Origin: an uncultured Propylenella sp.
GTDB taxonomy: Bacteria; Pseudomonadota; Alphaproteobacteria; Rhizobiales; Afifellaceae
NCBI GenBank assembly: GCA_964440525.1
Contig: CAYTTC010000005.1
Span: forward strand, 22,594-86,593
Length of the DNA: 64,000 nucleotides
Direction: 5' to 3'
The notes under the pieces were generated by a model. That model saw nothing but the letters and a program-made list of their open reading frames with translations, had not been told where the DNA came from and did not search any database. A program made the position numbers and the translations under genes. Every line of letters starts with the position of its first letter. The stretch's first letter is position 1. Below, piece after piece: positions 4,555 through 60,848 of the stretch.

Positions 4555-5748
4555 CTACCTTGCCTTCGCGCCCTGCTCGATCCAGGCGCCAAGCCTCGCG
4601 CGCTCTTCCCTCGTCATACCCGTGGTATTGCCGAGCGGCATAATGTCAGACAGCACGGTCTGCTGCTCGATCTTACTCGCGTAGAGTCGGATCTCTTCCA
4701 GCGTATCGAGCGCTACGCCCTTCGGCGCCGCAGGATAATCCTTGTTCGCCGGCGTCGCGGAGTGGCACTGGATGCAATGCTTTTCGATGATCGGATGGAT
4801 GTCGGCGAAGGAAGCGCCGCCCGTAATGGGCGCCGCACCGGGGCGATAGGCGGTGATCATGATCAGCACAATCACCACCGCGACCGCGGCAGGGATCGAA
4901 GCGAGCGCAACGGTGGTCAGGATCCCGTGATTGGTGACGTTGAAGAAATGGCGGATCAGGCCACCGACGACCACGATTCCGAGCGCGATCAGCGGGCTCC
5001 AGGGATGCCCGAACATGATCGGATAATGGTTGGAGATCATCATGAAGATGACGGGCAGCGTCAGATAATTGTTGTGGAGCGAGCGCTCCGCCGCCTCTTT
5101 TCCGAGCGCGGGATCTGGCTTCCGCCCAGCAATCAGGTCGGCCACCACGATCTTCTGGTTTGGAATGATGACGAAGAACACGCTTGCGGCCATGATCGTG
5201 CCGATCAGCGAGCCGACGTGCAGGAACGCCGCGCGGTCGGAAAAGACGCCGTGGTAGAAGAAGGTAAAGGCCGCGATCTCGATGAAGAGCGCGACGGCGA
5301 GCGGCCCGCGTTTCTGACCGAGCGGCGACTTGCACAGGCCATCGTAGATGAACCAACCGGCGGCCAGCGATCCAGCCGAGAGGACGATTGCCCAGGCTGG
5401 GTCGAGCGGGATTTTTTCTTTGTCGATCAGAAAAGCGTCGGCGCCGAAATAGTAGATAACGGCAAGCAGCAGGAAGCCGGTGATCCAGGTGAAATAGGCT
5501 TCGTATTTGAACCAGTGCAGCTCGTCGGGCATTCGGTCGGGCGCGACCGCGTATTTCTCGGCGAGATAGAAGCCGCCGCCATGCACCATCCAGGTCTCGC
5601 CGGCGATGCCCGGGTCCTGGCCGTCGCGCTTCTTCAGGCTCGCCTCCAGCCAGATGAAGAAAAACGACGTGCCGATCCAGGCGATGCCGGTCATGACATG
5701 CGCCCAGCGCAGCACCGCGTTCAGCCATTCGAGGATCGCCGCGCTCAT
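4555..5748 (-). CDS. puuD: Membrane urate hydroxylase PuuD (polytopic domain plus C-terminal cytochrome c)
   Basis: Multi-TM ORF with a C-terminal CIQCH haem-c motif, in the urate catabolic cluster. ATG at 5748 is preferred; the GTG at 5787 would overlap guaD by 34 nt. Confidence 0.78.
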   Translation of the reverse strand: MSAAILEWLNAVLRWAHVMTGIAWIGTSFFFIWLEASLKKRDGQDPGIAGETWMVHGGGFYLAEKYAVAPDRMPDELHWFKYEAYFTWITGFLLLAVIYYFGADAFLIDKEKIPLDPAWAIVLSAGSLAAGWFIYDGLCKSPLGQKRGPLAVALFIEIAAFTFFYHGVFSDRAAFLHVGSLIGTIMAASVFFVIIPNQKIVVADLIAGRKPDPALGKEAAERSLHNNYLTLPVIFMMISNHYPIMFGHPWSPLIALGIVVVGGLIRHFFNVTNHGILTTVALASIPAAVAVVIVLIMITAYRPGAAPITGGASFADIHPIIEKHCIQCHSATPANKDYPAAPKGVALDTLEEIRLYASKIEQQTVLSDIMPLGNTTGMTREERARLGAWIEQGAKAR

Positions 5749-5753
5749 CGAGG

Positions 5754-6233
5754 TCAGTACTGAACCTTGTCGGGCTTTTTCTGCCACTCGGCGAAGACGG
5801 CCTCAGCCTCCGGCAATTCGAGCTTCACCGTCGGGATGGTGCGGGCGTCGATCGGCTTCGATACCTCGTCGTAGATGAGCGCATCGTCGAAGCCGATCGC
5901 AGCGGCGTCCTCACGGGAGTTGGCGAAGAAGATGCGGTCGATCCGCGCCCAATAGATGGCGGCGAGGCACATCGGGCATGGCTCGCAGCTCGTGTAGATG
6001 TCGCAGCCGACAAGCGAGAACGATCCGAGCGTTGCACAGCCGCCGCGGATCGCCGTCACCTCGGCGTGCGCCGTCGGATCGTTCGTCGAGGTGACCTTAT
6101 TCCAGCCTTCGGCGATCACCTTGCCGTCCTTGACGATGATGGCGCCGAATGGCCCGCCGGCTCCTTCCCGCATGCGCTCCGCCGAGAGTTTTACGGCGCG
6201 GCGCATGAATTCGCGATGCGGCTCAGCGTCCAT
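5754..6233 (-). CDS. guaD: Guanine deaminase (CDA-fold nucleoside/guanine deaminase)
   Basis: 159-aa ORF with zinc motifs HAE (..PTAHAEVTAIR) and PCPMC. Lies between xdhC and puuD. Substrate is assigned from context only. Confidence 0.7.
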   Translation of the reverse strand: MDAEPHREFMRRAVKLSAERMREGAGGPFGAIIVKDGKVIAEGWNKVTSTNDPTAHAEVTAIRGGCATLGSFSLVGCDIYTSCEPCPMCLAAIYWARIDRIFFANSREDAAAIGFDDALIYDEVSKPIDARTIPTVKLELPEAEAVFAEWQKKPDKVQY

Positions 6234-9763: not shown

Positions 9764-11211
9764 CAGGCAAGCTCCAGCACGCGGGTTGCCGGTCGCGCGC
9801 CGCCCGCATTTTCCAGGTGGAAACGCCGCAGCAGATTCTGCGCAGCCTTCAGCCTATAGGCGGCGGAGGCGCGCATGTCGGTGAGCGGGGTGAAATCCTC
9901 GGCGAGCGCCGCGATGGCGCGCGCGACGGCCGCCTCATCGAAGGCGCTGCCAATCAGCGCTGCCTCGGCCGCGAACGCGCGCTTCGGCGTCGCCGCCATG
10001 CCGCCAAAGGCGATCCGTGGCTCGCTCACCTTGCCGCCATCAAGCTTCACCGAGAACGCGCCCATGACGGCGGAAATGTCCTGGTCGAAGCGTTTCGAAA
10101 GTTTGTAGCAGGCGAAGCGACAATCGGATGGCAGCGCCGGCACAAACACGCTTTCGACAAATTCGCCCGGCGCCCGGTCCTGCTTGCCATAGGCGATGAA
10201 GAAATCTTCCAGCGGAATTTCTCGCCGCTCGACGCCGTGGCGGAGCGTCAGCCGCGCGTCGAGTGCAATCAGCGCCGGCGGCAAGTCGCCGATCGGCGAG
10301 CCGTTGGCGATGTTGCCCCCAACGGTCCCGGCATTGCGAATCTGGATCGAGGCGAAACGGCGCAGAAGCTCGCCGAGATCAGGGTGCAGGCGCGCCAGCG
10401 CCGCCGTCGCGTCGCGATGGCTGAGCGTGGCGCCGAGAGTGAGCCCTTCCTCGGATTCATCGACGGCGGAAAGGTCTCTTACGCGCGTGACATCGATCAA
10501 GGTCTTCACGCGCCGATGCTGCTTGGTGACCCAGAGCCCGACGTCAGTCGCACCGGCGACCAGCACTGCGTCGGGATACTCCAGATAAATTTCGGCGAGC
10601 TCGTCGGCCGAGCGCGGCGCGAAGACCTGGGCCTCGCCATGCGTGAGATGCAGCATGGCGCCCTCGGAGAGCTTATCGAGCCGCTTCGCCGTCCGCGCGG
10701 AAGCGGCGGGGTTGGGGCCCGGCGCCTCGCCGGCCTCCAACCCCGCATCGATGATCGGGCCATAGCCGGTGCAGCGGCATAGATTGCCGGCGATCCAGTC
10801 CTTGACCCTCTGCCGGCCGGTCAGCTCGCCCTCGAGCCAGCCGGCATAGAGCTGCATGACGAAGCCCGGCGTGCAAAAACCGCATTGCGAGCCGTGATGC
10901 TCGACCAGCGCCTGCTGCACCGGATGCAGCTTCCCGTCCGGCGCCCTCAGGTCCTCGACCGTCGTGAGCTGCCGTCCGTGCAGCACCGGCACGAACTGGA
11001 TGCAGGAATTGACCGCGCGATGCTTCAGGCCGCCCTCTCCGTCGAGCTCGGAGATGACGACGGTGCAGGCGCCGCAGTCACCCTCGGCACAGCCCTCCTT
11101 GGTGCCCATGCGGCGTTCGTGCCGGCGCAGATATTCGAGCACCGTCAGCGTCGGCGAGACGCCGTCGAGCGTGCGCTCCTCGTCGCCCAGGAGAAAGCGA
11201 ATCGCGGCCAT
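9763..11211 (-). CDS. xdhA: Xanthine dehydrogenase small subunit (2Fe-2S plus FAD-binding)
   Basis: 482-aa ORF with [11 protein letters not shown] and CRCTGY iron-sulfur motifs, then an FAD-binding domain ([14 protein letters not shown]). Confidence 0.9.
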
Positions 11212-47209: not shown

Positions 47210-50155
47210 CTAGCTCACCGGCACGCCGAGCACGCTCTCGAGCGCCGCGCGGGTCCGCGCCTGAATCTCCACCAGCCGCGCCTCCAGCTCCGCGAATGAT
47301 GCGACGCCGGTCCGCTCCGTGCCGACGCCGGCATTCCTGAGCGCATCGTCGGCGACCCCGACCATCAGCCGCTTCAGCGCCTCCGGCGCCTGGTCGGGCG
47401 AAAAACCCTTCGGGTCGGCGACGCGCTCGATCTGCAGGAGCGCGCTCTGCAAAGCGGCGGAGAGGATGAGGCGTTCGCCCTCCGCCAGGGCCGGGCGCCC
47501 TGCATCGGCGGCGCGCTGCAGCGTCTCCAACGTCGTCTCGCCCGGCACGCGGCCGAGCCCGCTCAGCACGAGGAATTGTGCGGCAAATTCGCAATCAATC
47601 AATCCGCCCCGCGCGAGCTTCACGTCGAACGCGCCCGCCGCCGCCTTTTCACGCTCGACGCGGGCGCGCATCGACGCCACGTCGGCGGCGAGTTTTCCTG
47701 GGTCGCGCTCCTTTGCAACCAGCGCGTCGAGCACGCCGGATACGCGTGTCATAAGCTCCGCGTCGCCGGCGATGGCGCGGCCGCGCGACATGGCCATGTG
47801 TTCCCAGGTCCAGGCCTCGCTCAATTGATACGCCGCGAATGCTTCGATGTGCGTGGCGAGCGGTCCCGCCCGGCCGGAGGGCCTCAGCCTCAGATCGACC
47901 TCGTAGGCAATCCCCTCCGCGGTCGGCGCTGCGAGAGCCGCGACGAGGCGCTGCGTCAGTCGCGCATAGTATAGCGAGGGAGCAAGTGGGCGCTCTCCGT
48001 CGGAGACGGAATCCGGCTCGTGGTCGTAGACGACGATCAGGTCGAGATCGGACCCCGCGGTCATTTCGCGGCTCCCGAGCCGCCCGAAAGCGACGATCGC
48101 GGCTCGCCCATTTGGCAGACGCCCGTGCCGCCGCGAAAACTCCTCTTCCGTTCGCCGCAGAAGCGCCCGCACGATCGCCTCGGCAAGGTCGGAGAACGCC
48201 TTCCCGACGTCGGACGGGGCGAGCGTGCCGTTCAGCAGCCCGACAGAAATCAGGAAGCGCCGCTCGGCGACGAAGAGCCGCGCGCGGTCGAGCACGTCCT
48301 CGTAGCTTCGCGCCTCCACCAAGCTTCGCTCGAGCGCCTCCGCAAGCTCGCTGGGTCCGGCGGCATCGCCGGCGAGCCTTGGACCTAGCAGCGCGTCGGC
48401 GACGTGCGGCCGGCGGGCAAAAATCTCGGCAAGCCGCGGTGCGGCGCTCAAGACGGTGGCGAGGAGATCGAGGAGGTCGGGATTGTTCCTGAGCAGCGCG
48501 AAAAGCTGCGCGCCGGTCGGCTGCGCCTTCAGGAGGCTGTCGAAGGCGCGGACCGCGGCGTCGGGATTGCCGGCGCGGGAGAAAGCCTTCAGGAGCGCCG
48601 GCGTGATTTCGGTCAGGCTCTCGCGCGCGGCGGTGGAGCGCATCGCGGCGAAGCGCCCAAAATGCCAGCCGCGAACCGTCTCTGTCACATTCTCCGGCGT
48701 TGCGAAACCGAGCCCCCTGAGCGTCGCCAGCGTCTCCGGATCGTCCTCGCCGCCAGTGAACACGAGGCTTCCGCCTCCCGACGAAAGCTCCTGCGCGCTT
48801 TCGAAAAGCTCCGAATAGCGCCGCGCCACGGTCTCCAGAATGCGGCGAAAGTCGGCTTCGAAGGCAGCCGGATCAGCGTAGCGCATGAGGCGGGCGATCC
48901 GCGCCAGCTCGGCTCGGTCGCGCGGCATGGCATGCGTCTGCTCGTCGCGCACCATCTGCAGCCGATGCTCGACGTTGCGCAGCACGCAATAGGCTTCGTC
49001 GAGCTCCTTTCGCGCCGCCTCGTCGATCCATCCCTTCTCGGCGAGTTTTGCCAGCATGTCGCGGGTTCTGGTGCCGCGCAGCTCCGGGTCGCGACCGCCA
49101 GCGATCAGCTGCTGCGTCTGCACGAAGAACTCGATCTCGCGAATACCGCCGCGCCCGCGCTTGATGTCGTGGCCGAGCACGCGGACCGTCGCGTGGCCGC
49201 GATGCGCATGCACCTGCCGCTTGATGGAATGGATGTCGGCGATTGCCGCGAAGTCGAGATATTTCCGCCAGATGAACGGCGCCAGCGCGCCGATGAAGGC
49301 CTCGCCGGCGGCGATGTCTCCGGCGACTGCGCGCGCCTTGATGAACGCGGCGCGCTCCCAGTTCTGCCCCATGCTCTCGTAGTAGAGGAGCGCCGCCTCC
49401 GCCGAGATCGCCACGCGGGTCGCGCCGGGATCGGGCCTGAGGCGCAAATCGACGCGGAAGACATAGCCGTCGCCGGTCCGCTCCTGCAGCAGCGTGACGA
49501 TCTGGCGCACGATCTTGACCCAGAAGGCGGAAGCCTCGCTGCCATCGGCGGGGCCGGGCGCCCCCGGATCGAAGAGCGCGATGATGTCGATGTCGCTCGA
49601 ATAGTTGAGCTCGCCGGCGCCGTATTTTCCCATGCCGAGGATGAAGAAGCCGCGCGGCTCTTTCCCCCCGATCCATCGGCCAGCGCGCGCCGCATCGGCG
49701 AGCGCGAAGCGGAGCGCGGCCGAAAGCGCCGCGTCGGCGAATTTCGTGAGCAGCGCGGTGACCGCTTCCAGCTCGATCGCGCCGGCGAGATCGGCGAGGC
49801 CGAGCGTCAGCGCCGCGTCCTGCTTGGCGCGTCGAAGCGCCGTCATCGCGCCAGCGCGCGTCGGCCAATCCGCCGCCGCAAGCTCGGCATCGATCCGCTC
49901 GATACGCGCTGCCGGGGCATCGGCGAGGATCGCAACGAGCCGCGCAACATCTCTCGCTGCGAGATCGAGAAGGTACGGACAGTCGCCAAGCGCATTCCCA
50001 AGAAACCCGGCGACGAGCGGATCGGCGAGAACGCTGTCGAGGCTCGGGCGCGCGGCCTGGTTTTCGGCGGCATCCTGAAGACGCTCGATCGCGATGGTGG
50101 AAGCGGGCGAATCGGGCAGCGCCGCGATGCGGCTCGCGAGCGGCTCAGGCCGCAC
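47210..50155 (-). CDS. glnE: Bifunctional glutamine synthetase adenylyltransferase/adenylyl-removing enzyme
   Basis: 981-aa ORF with two nucleotidyltransferase domains (GMGKYGAGELNYSSDIDI and FGRLGSREMTAGSDLDL). Confidence 0.9.
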   Translation of the reverse strand: MRPEPLASRIAALPDSPASTIAIERLQDAAENQAARPSLDSVLADPLVAGFLGNALGDCPYLLDLAARDVARLVAILADAPAARIERIDAELAAADWPTRAGAMTALRRAKQDAALTLGLADLAGAIELEAVTALLTKFADAALSAALRFALADAARAGRWIGGKEPRGFFILGMGKYGAGELNYSSDIDIIALFDPGAPGPADGSEASAFWVKIVRQIVTLLQERTGDGYVFRVDLRLRPDPGATRVAISAEAALLYYESMGQNWERAAFIKARAVAGDIAAGEAFIGALAPFIWRKYLDFAAIADIHSIKRQVHAHRGHATVRVLGHDIKRGRGGIREIEFFVQTQQLIAGGRDPELRGTRTRDMLAKLAEKGWIDEAARKELDEAYCVLRNVEHRLQMVRDEQTHAMPRDRAELARIARLMRYADPAAFEADFRRILETVARRYSELFESAQELSSGGGSLVFTGGEDDPETLATLRGLGFATPENVTETVRGWHFGRFAAMRSTAARESLTEITPALLKAFSRAGNPDAAVRAFDSLLKAQPTGAQLFALLRNNPDLLDLLATVLSAAPRLAEIFARRPHVADALLGPRLAGDAAGPSELAEALERSLVEARSYEDVLDRARLFVAERRFLISVGLLNGTLAPSDVGKAFSDLAEAIVRALLRRTEEEFSRRHGRLPNGRAAIVAFGRLGSREMTAGSDLDLIVVYDHEPDSVSDGERPLAPSLYYARLTQRLVAALAAPTAEGIAYEVDLRLRPSGRAGPLATHIEAFAAYQLSEAWTWEHMAMSRGRAIAGDAELMTRVSGVLDALVAKERDPGKLAADVASMRARVEREKAAAGAFDVKLARGGLIDCEFAAQFLVLSGLGRVPGETTLETLQRAADAGRPALAEGERLILSAALQSALLQIERVADPKGFSPDQAPEALKRLMVGVADDALRNAGVGTERTGVASFAELEARLVEIQARTRAALESVLGVPVS

Positions 50156-51557
50156 GGCCGGATGCCGCTCCTGGCACGGTGAGGACAGCAGCGAGGCCGG
50201 GCCTGTTGTCGGTCAGGACGAGCTTGCCGCCATGCAGTTGCGCCACCGCGGAAACGAGGCTCAGACCGAGGCCGGCGCCAGGCTTCGAGCGGCTCTCCTC
50301 GAGCCGGACAAAACGCTCGGTGACCCGCGGCCTGTCGGCTTCCGCGATGCCGGTGCCGTTGTCGGCGACGCGGAAGGTCACCACGCCTTTATCCTCGCTG
50401 ACCGAGATGGTCACTTGCGGCTTCTCGTTGCCCTCGTCGGCATATTTGATTGCGTTGTCAACGAGGTTGGCGAGCGCCTGGCTGACCAGCTCGCGATTGG
50501 CGCGAACCATCACCGGGCCGGCGCTTTCGAGCCGCAACCCAACGCCTGCTTCCTCGGCGACCGGCTCGTAAAGCTCGAGCACATCGCGGGCGACCCGCGA
50601 GGCGTCGAAATCCGCGAACTCGGTCTCGGGGGCGCCCGCTTCCGCGCGCGCAATCAGGAGGAGCGCGTTGAAGGTGCGAATCAGCTGATCGGCCTCTTCG
50701 ATGGTCGCATGCAGCGCGTCGCGAAGATCCGGCTCCGTCCGTCCCTGCACGAGCGCACGCTCGACGCGATTGCGCATCCGGGTGAGCGGCGTCTTCAGGT
50801 CGTGGGCGATATTGTCGGAAACCTGCTTCAGGCCCAGCATGAGGCGCTCGATCCGCGCCAGCATGGTGTTCAGGCTTTCGGCAAGCCGGTCGAACTCGTC
50901 GCCGGTTCCGGTGACCTCCAGGCGGCCCGAAAGATCGCCCGCGACGAAGCGTTGGCTCGTCTCGGCGATCGAATCGATCCGCTTTAGCACCCGTCGCGAG
51001 ACGAAGATCCAAGCGGCGAGAGCGAGCACCACCATCAGCGCGGCGGTCAGGATCAGCGAGCGCTGGACGACGCGGATCAGCGCGTCGCGCTCGCTCACGT
51101 CGCGGCCGACCAGCACTCGCACGCCGTCGGGAAACTCGATGACGCGGACGAGCGCCGTGTGGGGCCGCTGCGAGCCGGCTTCGTCGCGCCACATATAGGG
51201 GACGACCTGCGCGGCCGAGCCGGTCTGATCGAGGATCGCGGCCGGCACCGTCTCCACATTACCGGCGATCCGATCGCCATCGGCATCGGTGACGAAATAG
51301 AGGCTGGCGCCCGGCTGGCGGCTCCTGAGATCGACGACGCGCGCTAGCCACGGCATGCCGCCGCGCTCGTACTGGAGCGAAATGGCGCGCAATTCGGCGT
51401 CGACCGCCGCGCGCATCTGCGTCTCCAGGATGCCGCTCATGTTCCTCGCGATCGTGCCGATGAGGAACACGGCAAAGATCGTGAAGACAGCAAGAAAGAT
51501 GGCCGTGAGCTTGAAGGCGGTGGTGCGGAACAGACGAAGGGAGGGCGGACTAGGCAT
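50145..51557 (-). CDS. Sensor histidine kinase (two TM, HAMP, HisKA, HATPase)
   Basis: 470 aa with H-box SDNIAHDLKTPLTRM and GAGLGLSLV. 8-nt overlap with the upstream response regulator and 11-nt overlap with glnE. Confidence 0.85.
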   Translation of the reverse strand: MPSPPSLRLFRTTAFKLTAIFLAVFTIFAVFLIGTIARNMSGILETQMRAAVDAELRAISLQYERGGMPWLARVVDLRSRQPGASLYFVTDADGDRIAGNVETVPAAILDQTGSAAQVVPYMWRDEAGSQRPHTALVRVIEFPDGVRVLVGRDVSERDALIRVVQRSLILTAALMVVLALAAWIFVSRRVLKRIDSIAETSQRFVAGDLSGRLEVTGTGDEFDRLAESLNTMLARIERLMLGLKQVSDNIAHDLKTPLTRMRNRVERALVQGRTEPDLRDALHATIEEADQLIRTFNALLLIARAEAGAPETEFADFDASRVARDVLELYEPVAEEAGVGLRLESAGPVMVRANRELVSQALANLVDNAIKYADEGNEKPQVTISVSEDKGVVTFRVADNGTGIAEADRPRVTERFVRLEESRSKPGAGLGLSLVSAVAQLHGGKLVLTDNRPGLAAVLTVPGAASGRAA

Positions 51558-52227
51558 CGTCCCGCATCACATAACCGGAGCCCCGCACGGTATGCAGCAG
51601 CACTCGGTCGAAGCCCTTGTCGATCTTGGCTCTGAGCCGCGACATGTGGACGTCGATGACATTGGTCTGCGGATCGAAATGATAGTCCCAGACTTTTTCG
51701 AGAAGCATGGTCCGCGTCACCACGGTCCCGGCGTTCTTCATCAGATATTCGAGCAGGCGGAATTCGCGCGGCTGCAGGACGATCGGCTCGCCGCCGCGAT
51801 GCACTTTTCGCGCCAGCCGATCAAGCTCGAGGTCGGCGACGCGATAGACGGTCTCCGCCTCCTTCGGTGCGCTCCGCCGGCCAAGAACCTCGACGCGCGC
51901 CAGAAGCTCCGAAAAGGCATAGGGTTTTGGCAGATAGTCGTCGCCGCCGGCCCTGAGGCCTGTAACACGGTCATCGACCTGGCCGAGCGCCGAGAGGATC
52001 AGTACGGGGACCCGGTTGCCGGCCGCCCTGAGTTCGGCGATGAGCGAAAGGCCGTCGCGCTTCGGCAGCATGCGGTCCACGACCAGCACGTCGTAGTCCT
52101 CCGCCGTCGCCAGCTCGAACCCGGCCTGCCCGTCATTTGCGCTGTCGGCGACATGGCCGGCCTCGCCCAGCGCCTTGACCAGGTAGTTCGCCGTCTCGCG
52201 ATCGTCTTCGATGACCAGGATGCGCAT
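51550..52227 (-). CDS. OmpR-family response regulator
   Basis: MRILVIEDD receiver domain and a winged-helix C-terminus (..IDVHMSRLRAKID...TVRGSGY). ATG at 52227. Confidence 0.9.
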   Translation of the reverse strand: MRILVIEDDRETANYLVKALGEAGHVADSANDGQAGFELATAEDYDVLVVDRMLPKRDGLSLIAELRAAGNRVPVLILSALGQVDDRVTGLRAGGDDYLPKPYAFSELLARVEVLGRRSAPKEAETVYRVADLELDRLARKVHRGGEPIVLQPREFRLLEYLMKNAGTVVTRTMLLEKVWDYHFDPQTNVIDVHMSRLRAKIDKGFDRVLLHTVRGSGYVMRDDA

Positions 52228-52277
52228 GAGAATGAGATAACCGGCTTCAGTGTGCTCCGCCAGTTCGGCTCCTTGCA

Positions 52278-52376
52278 GCATGATCCCGAAAAGTGGGAAC
52301 CGCTTTTCGGAAAAGATCATGCTCAAACAAAACGATAGAGCCCCATTCTGATTAGATCAGAATGGAAAGGCTCTAC
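52278..52376. repeat. Two adjacent nested palindromes upstream of the response-regulator gene
   Basis: The first is GCATGATC-CCGAAAAG-N9-CTTTTCGG-AAAA-GATCATGC (52278-52322). The second is AGAGCC..CCATTCTGAT-TAG-ATCAGAATGG..GGCTCT (52336-52376). The + frame translates as ..DPEKWEPLFGKDHAQTK.., which I recall as a common intergenic repeat translation in Rhizobiales. Confidence 0.5.
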
Positions 52377-52471: not shown

Positions 52472-53989
52472 TCAGCCGCGCTCGAAGGGCACGCCCACGA
52501 ACCTCGTGCCGTTCTCGCCCTGGACGCGGAAGAGCACCGCGTCACGTCCGCGATCCTGCGCGGCGGCAACGCCTTCTTCGACGTCGGCGATGCTGGTCAC
52601 CGGCTTCGAGCCGACGGCGACGATGACGTCGCCCGCCTGCAGGCCCTTGTCGGCGGCCGGGCTTTCCTCGTCGACGCTCGCGACGCGGACGCCCTCGCCG
52701 TCGGGGTTCTGCTCCAGCTTCAGGCCGAGAGCTTCGAGCGAGCCGGGCGTCGCGTCCGGGGCCACTTCGGGCTGATCGGCGCTCGCCTGCTGCTGCTCAT
52801 CGAAGTCGTTCAGATTGCCGAGCGTGACATCGAACTCCTGCTCGCTGCCGTCGCGCATCACTGTCACCGTGATCTTGGCGCCCGGCTCGATCTTGGCGAT
52901 CGTCTCGGAAAGCTCCTTCGGGCTCGCCACCGCGTTGCCGTTCACCTTGGTGATGATGTCGCCGGTGCGGATGCCGGCGCCCTGGGCCGGGCCATCGGCG
53001 GTCGCATCGGCAACGATCGCACCCTTGGTGTCTTCAATGCCGAGGCTCTCGGCGATGTCTTTGGTGACCGGCTGGATCTGAACGCCGAGCCAGCCGCGTG
53101 TGACGACGCCATTGTCCCTGAGATCGCTGATCACCTCGGAGACGATGCTCGCCGGAATTGCGAACGCGATGCCGACATTGCCGCCGGACGGGGAGAAGAT
53201 GGCGGTGTTCACGCCCACCACTTCGCCATGCACGTTGAAGGTCGGGCCGCCGGAATTGCCGCGGTTGATCGGCGCATCGATCTGCAGGAAGTTGTCATAA
53301 GGGCCGGAGCCGATGTCGCGGCCGTTGGCCGAGATGATGCCGGCCGACACTGAGCCGCCGAGGCCGAACGGATTGCCGACCGCCAGCACCCATTGCCCGA
53401 CCTTGGGCAGGTCGGTGGCGAAGCCGACATATTTGAAGTCGTTGCCATCGACCTTGAGGAGGGCGAGGTCGGTGCGCTCGTCGGTGCCGATCAGCTTGGC
53501 GTCGAGCTCGCTGCCGTCACTCATGGTGACGGTGTATTCCGTGCCATCCGCCACCACATGCGCATTGGTGACCACGTAGCCGTCATCGGTGATGAAGAAG
53601 CCGGAGCCCTGGCTCATCCCGCGACGCGGATGGAACGGCTCGCGGCCGCTGCCGTCCTCTTCGCCGCGCGGGATGTCGAAGCGGCGGAAGAACTCCTGCA
53701 GGCCGGGGGGGAGATCCTCGAACCCTTCCGGCGCGTCGCGGTTGGCGACCGCGGCGACCTCGGTCTTCACCTGCACGCTCACCACGGCCGGCGTCACCTG
53801 CTCGACAACCGCCGAGAAGTCTGCCGGAGCCGCGGCATCGACCCTGACGGGTTCGGCAAGCGCAACATGGCTGTTGGTGACGAGAACACCGGTGCCGGCG
53901 GCACCGACGATGCCGAGGGTAAAGACACTGGCGAGCAGCGCATTACGGATGCGCCGGGCTCGGGTATTTGAATTGGGGACGTTCGTCAT
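52472..53989 (-). CDS. degP: Periplasmic serine endoprotease DegP/HtrA (trypsin domain plus two PDZ)
   Basis: Signal-like N-terminus, TNAHVV, ..D.ALLKV.. and GNSGGP catalytic motifs, two PDZ regions. ATG at 53989. Confidence 0.9.
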   Translation of the reverse strand: MTNVPNSNTRARRIRNALLASVFTLGIVGAAGTGVLVTNSHVALAEPVRVDAAAPADFSAVVEQVTPAVVSVQVKTEVAAVANRDAPEGFEDLPPGLQEFFRRFDIPRGEEDGSGREPFHPRRGMSQGSGFFITDDGYVVTNAHVVADGTEYTVTMSDGSELDAKLIGTDERTDLALLKVDGNDFKYVGFATDLPKVGQWVLAVGNPFGLGGSVSAGIISANGRDIGSGPYDNFLQIDAPINRGNSGGPTFNVHGEVVGVNTAIFSPSGGNVGIAFAIPASIVSEVISDLRDNGVVTRGWLGVQIQPVTKDIAESLGIEDTKGAIVADATADGPAQGAGIRTGDIITKVNGNAVASPKELSETIAKIEPGAKITVTVMRDGSEQEFDVTLGNLNDFDEQQQASADQPEVAPDATPGSLEALGLKLEQNPDGEGVRVASVDEESPAADKGLQAGDVIVAVGSKPVTSIADVEEGVAAAQDRGRDAVLFRVQGENGTRFVGVPFERG

Positions 53990-54154
53990 GGCTCTTGGAA
54001 ACTCCGGTTGATCAAAGTGGTCCGCCCCGATCAAGCGGGGCGGACCGGAGGTCTGCGCCGGGGGCGATGGGGGGCAAAGCACCACCTGCGCATTCCTCAG
54101 ATACGGTGTGTCGCCTTACGACGCAGTGTCCGTCGCGTTAATTATCGGTAAGGT

Positions 54155-54589
54155 TCAGGTATCTGGCGCAGCGGAATGACGCCTCATCATCAGGAAGGCA
54201 TATTCCTTGATGTAGGTCTCCGTCAGTGCTCCGATGCGCGGCGTCTGATAGCCGGTCCAACATCCAAAGAACTCGCTTGTCCATGGAAGCACGGCCGTGT
54301 TGTCCAGGTCGAAGCGCGTCGCTCGTGCCAACCCTATTTGGTCGAGGTCGACGGCGTTCTGAATGATCAGGTCGAGATGTTGTCGATGAATGATCTTCAG
54401 CGACGTGGTTCCATACGCGACCCGGCAAGCAAAGCTAGACGACTCCTCGTCGCGAAGGACTACTGTTACCAAACAAGGTCGAAGTTTGGGCTCGGAAGCA
54501 AGTCCGCCGCGATCCGGGTACCAACAAGCCACTATGTCGTATGCCGACGGAGGGAAGCGAACCCAGGCCGGCTCACTTCTTTCCGGCAT
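54155..54589 (-). CDS. Hypothetical 144-aa protein with distant MazF/PemK-like sequence pattern
   Basis: By eye it aligns to the MazF layout: P.AYDIVACWYP......PKLRPCLV, then ..YGTTS.., then GLARATRFDLDNTAV, then a C-terminal helix-like IGALTETYIKE. Lower GC than flanks. Its ATG is embedded 17 nt inside the upstream ORF. Confidence 0.45.
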   Translation of the reverse strand: MPERSEPAWVRFPPSAYDIVACWYPDRGGLASEPKLRPCLVTVVLRDEESSSFACRVAYGTTSLKIIHRQHLDLIIQNAVDLDQIGLARATRFDLDNTAVLPWTSEFFGCWTGYQTPRIGALTETYIKEYAFLMMRRHSAAPDT

Positions 54590-54782
54590 AGCCGTCCACG
54601 ACGACCCATTTCCCCTTTTTCAAGATCTTGTTTGCCCGATCCTGGACAGATTTGACGACCTTCGGGCTCACATCGTCATGGTCGTCGAACGCTTCTGGTG
54701 GAAACGTGCGGCCAGAACGCAACGCCTTAGCGCTCCCTTCATTCGAGGTGGTAGCGCTGCTTTGCTTGCGGCGAACGCCCAT
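54573..54782 (-). CDS. Small 69-aa protein (up to 82 aa), unrecognised; putative partner of 54155..54589
   Basis: ATG at 54782 has GAGG 8 nt upstream (alternatives ATG 54803, TTG 54821). Sequence MGVRRKQSS...FDDHDDVSPKVVKSVQDRANKILKKGKWVVVDGYAGKK. Overlaps the downstream ORF by 17 nt. No motif recognised. Confidence 0.4.
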   Translation of the reverse strand: MGVRRKQSSATTSNEGSAKALRSGRTFPPEAFDDHDDVSPKVVKSVQDRANKILKKGKWVVVDGYAGKK

Positions 54783-54934
54783 GGCCCGAACCTCGCTCGT
54801 CATCTTAGTGCAGGCGCGCAATCTGCCACATTACAAGCGAAAAGGCACGCCTACTCTTGCTCCCGGAGGATGCGCGCAAGTCAAGCCTCTCCTCCTCCGC
54901 GCCGGAAAGCGCGGCTTGATCGGCGGCCGGCCGC

Positions 54935-55139
54935 TTGAAGCGCAGCATCGCGACGACGCCTCCCGCGACCAGCACCGCAAGCGGCGTCAACCGACGATCG
55001 GCTTCGAGGCGGAGGCGGCGACCAGGCGCTCGTCCCGCCAGCGGCCCGAGGAGCGGCACGCTCGACTGGACGAGCATCAGTGCAAGCGCCAGCCGAGAGC
55101 ACCGTGCCCGACCTCGGCGACGGAGAGCGCGCCCATCAT
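54935..55139 (-). pseudogene. ccmF: Probable decayed 5' remnant of ccmF (cycK)
   Basis: Directly after the ccmE stop: ATGATGGGC..AEVGHGAL, then in shifted frames LALALMLVQSSVPLLG and GRWRDERLVAASA. This resembles CcmF N-termini (..AE.GH.AL.LAL..AL.QS.VPL.GA.R.D..LM..A) and needs at least 2 frameshifts. Homology is lost by about 54.93 kb. Confidence 0.45.
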
Positions 55140-55141
55140 TG

Positions 55142-55591
55142 TCATTGAGCTGCCCCCTCGCCTTCTTTCCAGACGCCTTGCGCCTTCAGCGCGTCCACCA
55201 CCTCTTTCGGCATGTAATTCTCGTCGTGCTTGGCGAGCACAGTCTCGGCGCTGACGCTCCCTGCCGCAGTGAGCACGCCCTCCGTCACGATGCCCTGCCC
55301 TTCGCGAAAAAGATCCGGAAGGACGCCGCGAAAATCTACCTTTGTGCTGTTCGCCGTGTCGGTGATGGCGAAGCTGACGCTGCCGTCGTTGGCGCGGACG
55401 ACAGAACCCTCTACGACCAGCCCGCCGAGGCGGACGCGGGTTCCCGGTGCTAGCGCCTTCTCGGCGAGCTCGGTCGGCGAATAGAAGAAGACGATCTGGT
55501 CGCGCAACGCCACGAGAACGAGCGCCGCCGCCACGACGAGCACCGCCCCGGCGCCGCCGATCATGCTGAGCCGCCGCTGTTTCCGGGTCAT
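55142..55591 (-). CDS. ccmE: Cytochrome c maturation haem chaperone CcmE
   Basis: 149 aa with an N-terminal TM anchor, [16 protein letters not shown] and the C-terminal [13 protein letters not shown] haem-binding His motif. Confidence 0.9.
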
Positions 55592-60113: not shown

Positions 60114-60848
60114 TCATGCTTCGTTGGTCGAAAAAGAGCCCGCCCCCGCGACCACGGTCGCGCCGCCCTCCGGCGTCGGCGCGGTTGCCGGCCAGCGGGC
60201 GCCGAGGAGCCGCGTCTTGGCGACGCGGGCGATCGATACGGAATCCGATTGGTTGCCGCCGAGGACATGGAACGCAGCCGCATCCTCGCCGGCATAGAAG
60301 CCGACATGGCCCTGTGCGCTTGATCGCGACCCGCGCCAGAAAACCATGATCGCGCCGAGTGTCGGTGCGACCGCGACGCCGAAGCGGAGCCAATTGCGCG
60401 CGCCGAGCGGGTTTGAGGGCAGCGGCTCGTCCGGCAGGGCAGTGGCGATGCAATGGGCGGTGAAGAGCCCGCACCAGGCGGTTGAATCGTGCTGATAGGC
60501 GAGCCCGAACCGCTTCGCCCAGCGGAGGATTGTCGGATTGTCGGCGCGTCCCGCCCCTTCCTTCGTGCCCTTCAACCTCAACGCTTCCTCGTACCAGGGG
60601 ATCGCGGACGCGCTCCCCTCTCCCCTTGCGGGAGAGGGTGGCGTCCGGCCTTGGCCGGATGCCGGGTGAGGGAGAGCGCCCGCCAGCGCCGCGCCGGTCT
60701 GCGGTCCGGCAAGGCCGTCCGGCGCGAGGCCGTTCGCGGCCTGAAACGCCTTGATGGCGCGGATGGTGAGACGTCCCCGGACGCCGTCGAGCGGGCCCGG
60801 ATCGAAGCCGAGCGCGGCGAGCCGCCGCTGGATCTCCAGTGTCGTCAA
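60114..60848 (-). CDS. PG_binding_1 plus TIGR02594-like (CHAP/NlpC-like) cell-wall hydrolase
   Basis: N-terminus IQRRLAALGFDPGPLDGV.G..T..AIKAFQ...GL..DG..GP.T. The C-terminus has WC(G)LF...HVGFY.. pattern with conserved Cys and His. No signal peptide. Confidence 0.8.
   Translation of the reverse strand: MTTLEIQRRLAALGFDPGPLDGVRGRLTIRAIKAFQAANGLAPDGLAGPQTGAALAGALPHPASGQGRTPPSPARGEGSASAIPWYEEALRLKGTKEGAGRADNPTILRWAKRFGLAYQHDSTAWCGLFTAHCIATALPDEPLPSNPLGARNWLRFGVAVAPTLGAIMVFWRGSRSSAQGHVGFYAGEDAAAFHVLGGNQSDSVSIARVAKTRLLGARWPATAPTPEGGATVVAGAGSFSTNEA
60616..60659. repeat. Hairpin-rich REP-like element lying in frame inside the hydrolase linker
   Basis: CCCTCTCCC-CTTGC-GGGAGAGGG (60616-60638) followed by TCCGGCC-TTG-GCCGGA (60643-60659). 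The opposite-strand reading SPLPLRERV.. is a translation I recall from intergenic repeats in Rhizobiales. Confidence 0.55.

Follow-up and report, generated by a model that had tools for sequence, protein, structure and literature searches.

Decay of the cycHJKL (ccmIEFH) operon beside a toxin-antitoxin-like cassette in an uncultured Propylenella sp.

What became of ccmF and ccmH, the two genes expected between ccmE and degP, in a 64-kb stretch of DNA from an uncultured Propylenella sp. (GenBank assembly GCA_964440525.1, contig CAYTTC010000005.1, positions 22,594 to 86,593; hereafter the window, with positions counted from its first letter)? On the minus strand the order is ccmI, ccmE, a gap of about 1 kb, degP, a response regulator (RR) gene, a histidine kinase (HK) gene and glnE (Table 1), and within the gap the GC content drops to 57.0% (54160-54849), compared with 65-72% for the flanking genes and 64.9% for the whole window. 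An earlier note on this DNA had described both the gene order and the drop in GC, which agree with the gene coordinates, the Pfam matches and the base composition, and had gone on to propose that ccmF and ccmH, about 2.5 kb, had been lost and replaced by the lower-GC DNA. The reading that we favour, at a probability of roughly 85%, is that the cycHJKL (ccmIEFH) operon has decayed and owes its present form to two separate events, the insertion of a small two-gene cassette downstream of ccmH and a deletion that removed most of ccmF and ccmH. The evidence set out here establishes how the locus is built, in which order the events took place and that one of the cassette proteins has a MazF fold.

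The intact arrangement is found in a wide range of relatives. A search with the CcmE protein against one genome per species gave 80 loci, and in about 70 of these ccmE is immediately followed by a full-length ccmF, the remaining loci being mostly contigs that end before or inside ccmF. The Hyphomicrobiales among the 80 have the order ccmI-ccmE-ccmF-ccmH-degP. This cycHJKL-type order, seen here in L001, L084 and many other loci, has reportedly been described, with degP downstream, in Bradyrhizobium japonicum, Rhizobium leguminosarum and Sinorhizobium meliloti. The closest collinear relative, L084 (GCA_038211615.1), was found through CcmI and encodes proteins that are 73-95% identical to those of the window (CcmI 73%, CcmE 84%, DegP 82%). 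Its genes are arranged as RR-HK-149 aa-ccmI (386 aa)-ccmE (149 aa)-ccmF (668 aa)-ccmH (149 aa)-degP (509 aa)-RR-HK-glnE, and the window matches it gene for gene, save for ccmF and ccmH. Three further relatives, L086, L087 and L093, have the same intact operon, so that the ancestral ccmIEFH-degP order assumed in the earlier note holds for the Hyphomicrobiales loci and for all four collinear relatives. The window shares with the rhizobial operons the flanks (RR-HK-small protein-ccmI-ccmE on one side and degP-RR-HK-glnE on the other), the overlap of the ccmE stop with the ccmF start (ATGA), and intact ccmI and ccmE genes, which have the same lengths as in L084; the haem-binding motif of CcmE, with its His, is present. 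It differs from them in keeping no more of ccmF than 55 codons, which are frameshifted, and no more of ccmH than the last ~45, with 2,150 bp gone, and in the presence of a toxin-antitoxin cassette between the ccmH stop and degP. Among named relatives, the nearest are Propylenella metagenome-assembled genomes (MAGs; 65% CcmI identity) and Afifella (66% CcmE identity), and a scan of metagenome DNA for nearer relatives found only two, at ~73% identity. Two loci deserve separate mention. In L086 (ERZ25039547 contig_50662) nearly every gene is split, including ccmF, degP and the HK and glnE genes, and these splits look like uncorrected long-read indel errors, not biology. In L050 (MAG OH_PBrB_31, about 10001-10426), the sole locus of the 80 with ample flanks to show such an isolated gene, ccmE has no ccmF, ccmH or ccmI within 10 kb on each side and may represent a natural stand-alone arrangement.

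The extent of the loss follows from nucleotide alignment with L084. Window positions 56767-54989 align with L084 9982-11814 (ccmI, ccmE and ccmF to codon 55), positions 54992-54860 with L084 13965-14092 (ccmH codons 104-146), and positions 54159-52400 with L084 14123-15890 (the degP leader and degP). For L084 11815-13964, that is, 2,150 bp comprising ccmF codons 56-668 and ccmH codons 1-103, the window has no counterpart. The stubs meet at the sequence GGTT. In the relatives the ccmF side has GGTT or GGCT and the ccmH side has GGCT, which gives a 4-nt microhomology at the junction, and homology with four independent relatives (L084, L086, L087 and L093) ends at 54989-54996. The synteny comparison thus sets the deletion junction at 54989-54992 and the cassette boundaries at 54850 and 54160.

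Compared with the intact gene, the ccmF stub, whose ATG overlaps the ccmE stop, lacks 1 bp at one point and 2 bp at another, and these losses account for its three-frame pattern and an early TGA. Right after the ccmE stop the three frames read AEVGHGAL / LALALMLVQSSVPLLG / RWRDERLVAASA, or, over a longer span, a 17-residue stretch / LALALMLVQSSVPLLG / RWRDERLVAASASKPIVG. Apart from the 1-bp and 2-bp gaps, the stub aligns at the nucleotide level with codons 4-55 of L084 ccmF. Once the frame is repaired, the peptide scores 23 bits (E=6e-6) against a hidden Markov model (HMM) of 70 CcmF N-termini and retrieves only a CcmF fragment (71%, E=3e-13) from a collection of 5.8 billion proteins. The N-terminal HMM gave E=2.4 on the raw frames, significance being reached only after frame repair and from the nucleotide alignment, and a full-length CcmF HMM, applied to the window in six-frame fragments, did not detect the stub, as its sequence is spread over three frames. 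The ccmH stub, which is the best CcmH HMM match in the whole window (E=0.023), retains the C-terminal transmembrane helix and the LSxxEEExL tail with the native TAG at 54853-54851, has at least one frameshift, and ends as ...LARILREQE-TAG in yet another frame. Only the C-terminal ~45 codons are left, and the CXXC (LRCxxC) region is absent from the locus. No other CcmF or CcmH signal was found in the window, and a full-length CcmF (about 660 aa, with Cytochrom_C_asm and CcmF_C domains) is not encoded at the locus. Judged by its sequence, the locus has functionally lost both ccmF and ccmH.

Much of the earlier description survives these comparisons. The frameshifted CcmF N-terminus that it placed after ccmE is confirmed by the alignment to L084, the HMM score and the match to a CcmF fragment. 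As the relatives are intact and the stub matches CcmF, the locus does not represent a natural arrangement in which ccmE adjoins degP without ccmFH. The loss itself is real, but amounts to 2,150 bp and not to about 2.5 kb, since about 140 bp of the ccmH 3' end survive. These were overlooked when similarity was thought to end after the CcmF remnant, which is in fact followed directly by the ccmH stub at 54992-54851. In its 4-nt junction microhomology and the small frameshifting indels of its stubs, the locus resembles the pseudogenes produced in bacteria by microhomology-mediated (illegitimate) deletion, and it differs from these only in its unusual target, the haem lyase core of the sole ccm locus visible in the window. 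A literature search on natural ccmF pseudogenes gave nothing relevant.

A 90-aa open reading frame (ORF) on the minus strand (55077-54805), which is called as a gene on Logan contig L081, was considered as a functional gene and rejected. It joins the ccmF stub, read in a shifted frame, to the ccmH stub, and in all likelihood is a spurious frame created when the pseudogenes were fused. Two transmembrane-like segments are expected in this chimeric frame.

Deletions and frameshifts of this kind might also be errors of metagenome or long-read assembly, a concern that is raised by the absence of a close sequenced relative of the source contig and by the many frameshifted genes in the related long-read assembly L086. 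However, run SRR6868923, assembled independently by Logan, yields a contig that agrees with the window at 100% identity over 54095-55240 (1,146 bp), spanning the end of ccmE, both stubs with all their indels, the deletion junction, the cassette and hence both junctions, which argues that the deletion junction is not an assembly artefact. In addition, all other window genes examined have full-length frames, and a 4-nt microhomology cannot cause a k-mer misjoin. An artefactual origin is, in our view, scarcely credible. A literature search for SRR6868923 returned nothing.

The replacement proposed in the earlier note would require that foreign lower-GC DNA, such as a mobile element, came in and took ccmF-ccmH out in one and the same event. 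The deletion junction and the cassette are only 140 bp apart, and elsewhere the cassette family adjoins insertion sequence (IS) elements, prophage or gene transfer agent (GTA) genes and defence genes, as might be expected under such a scenario. Yet the deletion lies wholly upstream of the cassette, with the surviving ccmH tail and its native stop codon in between, and the cassette is inserted cleanly between the ccmH TAG and TGAACCTTACC. In the cassette-less relatives L084, L086 and L093, the ccmH stop is followed by TGAACCTTACC within 2-18 nt. Moreover, in other relatives ccmH is intact and is followed by the same cassette at the identical nucleotide position. Logan contig L094 encodes the intact C-terminal 97 aa of CcmH (E=1e-41), then the antitoxin and then a toxin 78% identical to that of the window; it is collinear with window 54904-54184, and nucleotide homology is unbroken through the ccmH stop into the upstream region of the cassette. 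Two Joint Genome Institute (JGI) contigs with P0003 (toxin 66% identical; samples 3300043331 and 3300056388), which were read as gene order, have the arrangement ccmE-ccmF (663 aa)-ccmH (129 aa)-44 aa-142 aa-next gene. The presence of the same cassette at the same site after an intact ccmH means that the insertion is older than the deletion and independent of it. Nor does the cassette have the hallmarks of an IS element, a transposon or an integron cassette (terminal repeats, attC or a duplication, and a recombinase): its ends at 54160 and 54850 show no inverted repeats, target-site duplication or flanking repeats beyond chance, and no transposase, integrase or recombinase gene accompanies it in the window, the 691 bp being filled by two ORFs. 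These comparisons indicate that the cassette did not replace ccmFH and that the deletion is confined to the lineage of the window and later than the cassette insertion. A one-event replacement is highly improbable, and this part of the earlier note has to be given up.

The lower-GC DNA is real, as the earlier note had it, but it consists of two conserved genes that had gone unnoticed. These overlapping minus-strand genes fill the cassette, and the GC content at third codon positions is 0.63-0.70, compared with 0.80-0.87 for host genes. The downstream gene encodes a 144-aa protein with 123 homologues (41-78% identity), which are named 'hypothetical' or 'uncharacterized' where the source gives a name and none of which has a precomputed Pfam domain. 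An AlphaFold2 model of this protein based on 61 homologues (pLDDT, the predicted local distance difference test score, 89.2; pTM, the predicted template modelling (TM) score, 0.84) shows a MazF/PemK fold. In a Foldseek search of the PDB, each of the 50 best matches is a MazF-type toxin or a close homologue (YdcE, MoxT and an mRNA interferase are included), with structures from Mycobacterium tuberculosis, Staphylococcus aureus, Bacillus (B. subtilis) and Escherichia coli MazF among them, a best E-value of 2.7e-5, a probability of 1.00 and TM scores (target) of 0.66-0.74. Across the 61 homologues R37, P38 and G60 never vary and T61 hardly does; going by this conservation and the known MazF motifs, the R37-P38 and T61 positions may correspond to the RPxxV arginine and the catalytic threonine of MazF, respectively.

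The upstream gene encodes a protein of 69 aa and overlaps the start of the toxin gene by 17 nt; an alternative TTG start at 54821 would give 82 aa. Its C-terminal motif, FPPEAF..DDV.P..V....A...L....W.VVDG, is kept in the upstream ORFs of L083 and L094 and is looser in that of L082, and an upstream ORF of 44-98 aa overlapping the toxin start is present at every locus examined (L082, L083, L089, L090, L094 and the JGI contigs). The 69-aa protein gave no family match in Pfam, NCBIfam, PADLOC, PHROGs or PDB sequences. The cassette is predicted to work as a toxin-antitoxin pair, with putative toxicity and RNase activity of the MazF-like component. Like MazEF and PemIK (Kid-Kis), it is a two-gene operon in which a small upstream gene overlaps a downstream gene of ~140 aa; the predicted fold of the toxin and the patchy distribution and association with mobile elements are also shared with these systems. 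In the toxin an invariant Arg-Pro stands before a hydrophobic strand and a conserved Gly-Thr after it, possibly at the places of the catalytic Arg and Thr of MazF. In contrast to MazF, however, the toxin has no detectable similarity to PF02452 and is ~25-30 aa longer, with a C-terminal helix, and its partner has a variable N-terminus and no recognisable AbrB/RHH DNA-binding domain. Elsewhere, the cassette is found beside a Prim-Pol/TIR/DUF4238 island, beside phage portal and terminase genes, and beside an IS1595 transposase. In Hoeflea alexandrii (L083) the pair is located between a GTA tail gene and the RR-HK-ccmI block, which is the same chromosomal neighbourhood as in the window at another intergenic site. 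Such a patchy distribution is typical of a mobile toxin-antitoxin module; the family loci covered here were L082, L083, L088-L091 and L094. The cassette could represent a family of MazF-fold toxins that is an orphan by sequence and has a small partner of a new kind, and a MazF-fold family with more than 120 homologues that is not recognised by Pfam, NCBIfam, PADLOC or PHROG models would be useful for the annotation of toxin-antitoxin and defence genes.

Taken together, we propose the following history. In an ancestor shared with some of the relatives, a horizontally acquired toxin-antitoxin cassette of 0.7 kb landed exactly between the ccmH stop and the degP leader. Later, and only in the lineage of the window, illegitimate recombination at the 4-nt microhomology (GGYT) removed 2,150 bp, so that 55 codons of ccmF were joined to 45 codons of ccmH. 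Both remnants have since gained frameshifting indels, at least three in all, and, with the haem-handling core of CcmF and the CXXC of CcmH lost, are non-functional pseudogenes. Transcription from the ccmI-ccmE operon would now read through the stubs into the cassette, and haem lyase function would be supplied by ccmF and ccmH genes elsewhere in the genome, as ccmI and ccmE appear to be under purifying selection.

The rates of change of the genes at the locus bear on when ccmF was lost and on what has happened since. With its frame repaired, the ccmF stub shares 40 of 51 residues (78%) with L084 CcmF and has a ratio of nonsynonymous to synonymous divergence (dN/dS) of 0.20, from which it follows that most of its divergence accrued under selection and that inactivation is recent relative to the split from L084 (dS about 0.7). 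For comparison, dN/dS against L084 is 0.25 for ccmI, 0.13 for ccmE and 0.06-0.25 for the intact neighbours overall. The ccmI and ccmE genes are no farther from the outgroup than their orthologues in genomes with an intact ccmFH and show no acceleration in rate. At least three frameshifting indels are found in ~300 bp of stubs and none in the 1,611 bp of ccmI and ccmE (p about 0.004 under uniformity, calculated as (300/1911)^3), which suggests that both of these genes are still being maintained. From what is known of System I, keeping ccmI and ccmE makes sense only if CcmF and CcmH function is present elsewhere. Hence, we tentatively infer a further copy of ccmF and ccmH in the genome from the intact and normally evolving ccmI and ccmE genes.

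A serious alternative, though the less likely one, is that the haem lyase of System I has genuinely been lost. The strain or population would then have no other ccmF or ccmH and be a natural cytochrome-c-deficient variant respiring via quinol oxidases, and its ccmI, ccmE and cytochrome c genes would owe their intact state solely to how recently the loss occurred. The low dN/dS of the ccmF stub points to a recent inactivation, as such a loss would require, neither gene occurs elsewhere in the window, and laboratory cycHJKL mutants of rhizobia grow aerobically. The contrast in indels between the stubs and ccmI-ccmE and the lack of rate acceleration in the latter argue against it, as does the continued presence of a PuuD-type protein with an intact CXXCH, within a view limited to 64 kb. 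This membrane urate hydroxylase (4555-5787, minus strand; Urate_ox_N, E=4e-121) has its C-terminal CXXCH at residue 338 and is, by its sequence features, a c-type haem protein, which would make it dependent on the Ccm system.

Several points weigh against the history of two events proposed above, or against parts of it. As the view covers 64 kb of the genome, the second ccmFH copy is pure inference, and as the deletion is recent, ccmI and ccmE may be intact just because there has been too little time for them to decay. A near-identical intact CcmF N-terminus, which would also be missing if the haem lyase were truly lost, was not found in the protein collection, in a search that used a query of 53 aa, yielded only 5 candidates and is insensitive for so short a query. 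The lack of repeats or duplications at the cassette ends leaves the route of its insertion without a trace. Finally, the toxin assignment has no counterpart at the sequence level: the 144-aa protein has no match in Pfam (E<=0.1), NCBIfam (E<=1), PADLOC or PHROGs, a profile search of PDB sequences gave nothing relevant, and hhalign of its profile against B. subtilis MazF places RPcLV on RPvLV only, at a non-significant probability of 1.9%.

The consequences depend on the rest of the genome. A genome without any CcmF or CcmH in which ccmI, ccmE and c-type cytochrome genes (with a PuuD-like CXXCH) are nonetheless kept under purifying selection is very unlikely; if true, it would imply a CcmF/H-independent attachment of haem downstream of CcmE or a second role of CcmE and CcmI. 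More generally, without another ccmF and ccmH the organism would be a natural member of the Hyphomicrobiales lacking c-type cytochromes, or would use an unknown route of haem attachment. Unless the rest of the genome proves to be without a second copy, this is ordinary gene decay. The locus then stands as a clean and well-dated case of operon decay beside a resident toxin-antitoxin cassette, which corrects the impression that foreign DNA had displaced the haem lyase genes.

The degP leader starts exactly where the cassette ends and was left untouched by both the deletion and the insertion. Over its 170 nt it is 83% identical to L084 and L086 and thus as conserved as coding DNA; the first ~55 nt are nearly identical (TGAACCTTACCGATAATTAACGCGACGGACACTGCGTCGTAAGGCGACAC), and a perfect 11-bp stem-loop at 54019-54046, GGTCCGCCCCG-N6-CGGGGCGGACC, is also present in L084, L086 and L093. 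The leader is probably a promoter or a 5' untranslated regulatory element of degP. Rfam gave nothing relevant, a promoter scan found nothing and a terminator scan returned one match at background level. The likely start of degP is at 53989, which corresponds to M33 of the longer open frame and to the homologous start.

Table 1. Features of the window around the decayed ccm operon, in order of position.
Feature	Position	Strand	Basis or remark
glnE	47210-50155	minus	
Histidine kinase (HK) gene	50145-51557	minus	
Response regulator (RR) gene	51550-52326	minus	
degP	52472-53989, open frame upstream to 54085	minus	Trypsin_2 and two PDZ domains, HtrA-type serine protease (Pfam)
degP leader/promoter region, conserved	53990-54159	minus	83% identity to L084 and L086
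MazF/PemK-fold toxin-like gene, 144 aa	54155-54589	minus	AlphaFold2 model and Foldseek
Antitoxin-like small gene, 69 aa from ATG	54573-54782	minus	Conserved C-terminal motif in L083 and L094
Two-gene cassette, 691 bp, 57% GC	54160-54850	minus	Between ccmH stop and degP leader
ccmH stub (pseudogene), last ~45 codons	54851-54992	minus	CcmH HMM and nucleotide alignments to L084, L086 and L094
Deletion junction GGTT	54989-54992		Homology with relatives breaks here
ccmF stub (pseudogene), codons 1-55	54989-55145	minus	Nucleotide alignment to L084 11661-11814
ccmE (cycJ), intact, 149 aa	55142-55591	minus	Pfam CcmE, E=3e-32
ccmI (cycH), intact, 386 aa	55588-56748	minus	Pfam TPR_CcmH_CycH

To the right of the RR-HK pair that precedes ccmI, the window encodes a PG_binding_1 protein (60114-60848). 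It matches the gene that follows an RcGTA-like tail cluster in L084 (1-6833), L086 and Hoeflea, where the cluster comprises GTA_TIM, Phage-tail_3, Rcc01698_C and DUF2793 genes. By this likeness, the right end of the window may adjoin a GTA cluster.

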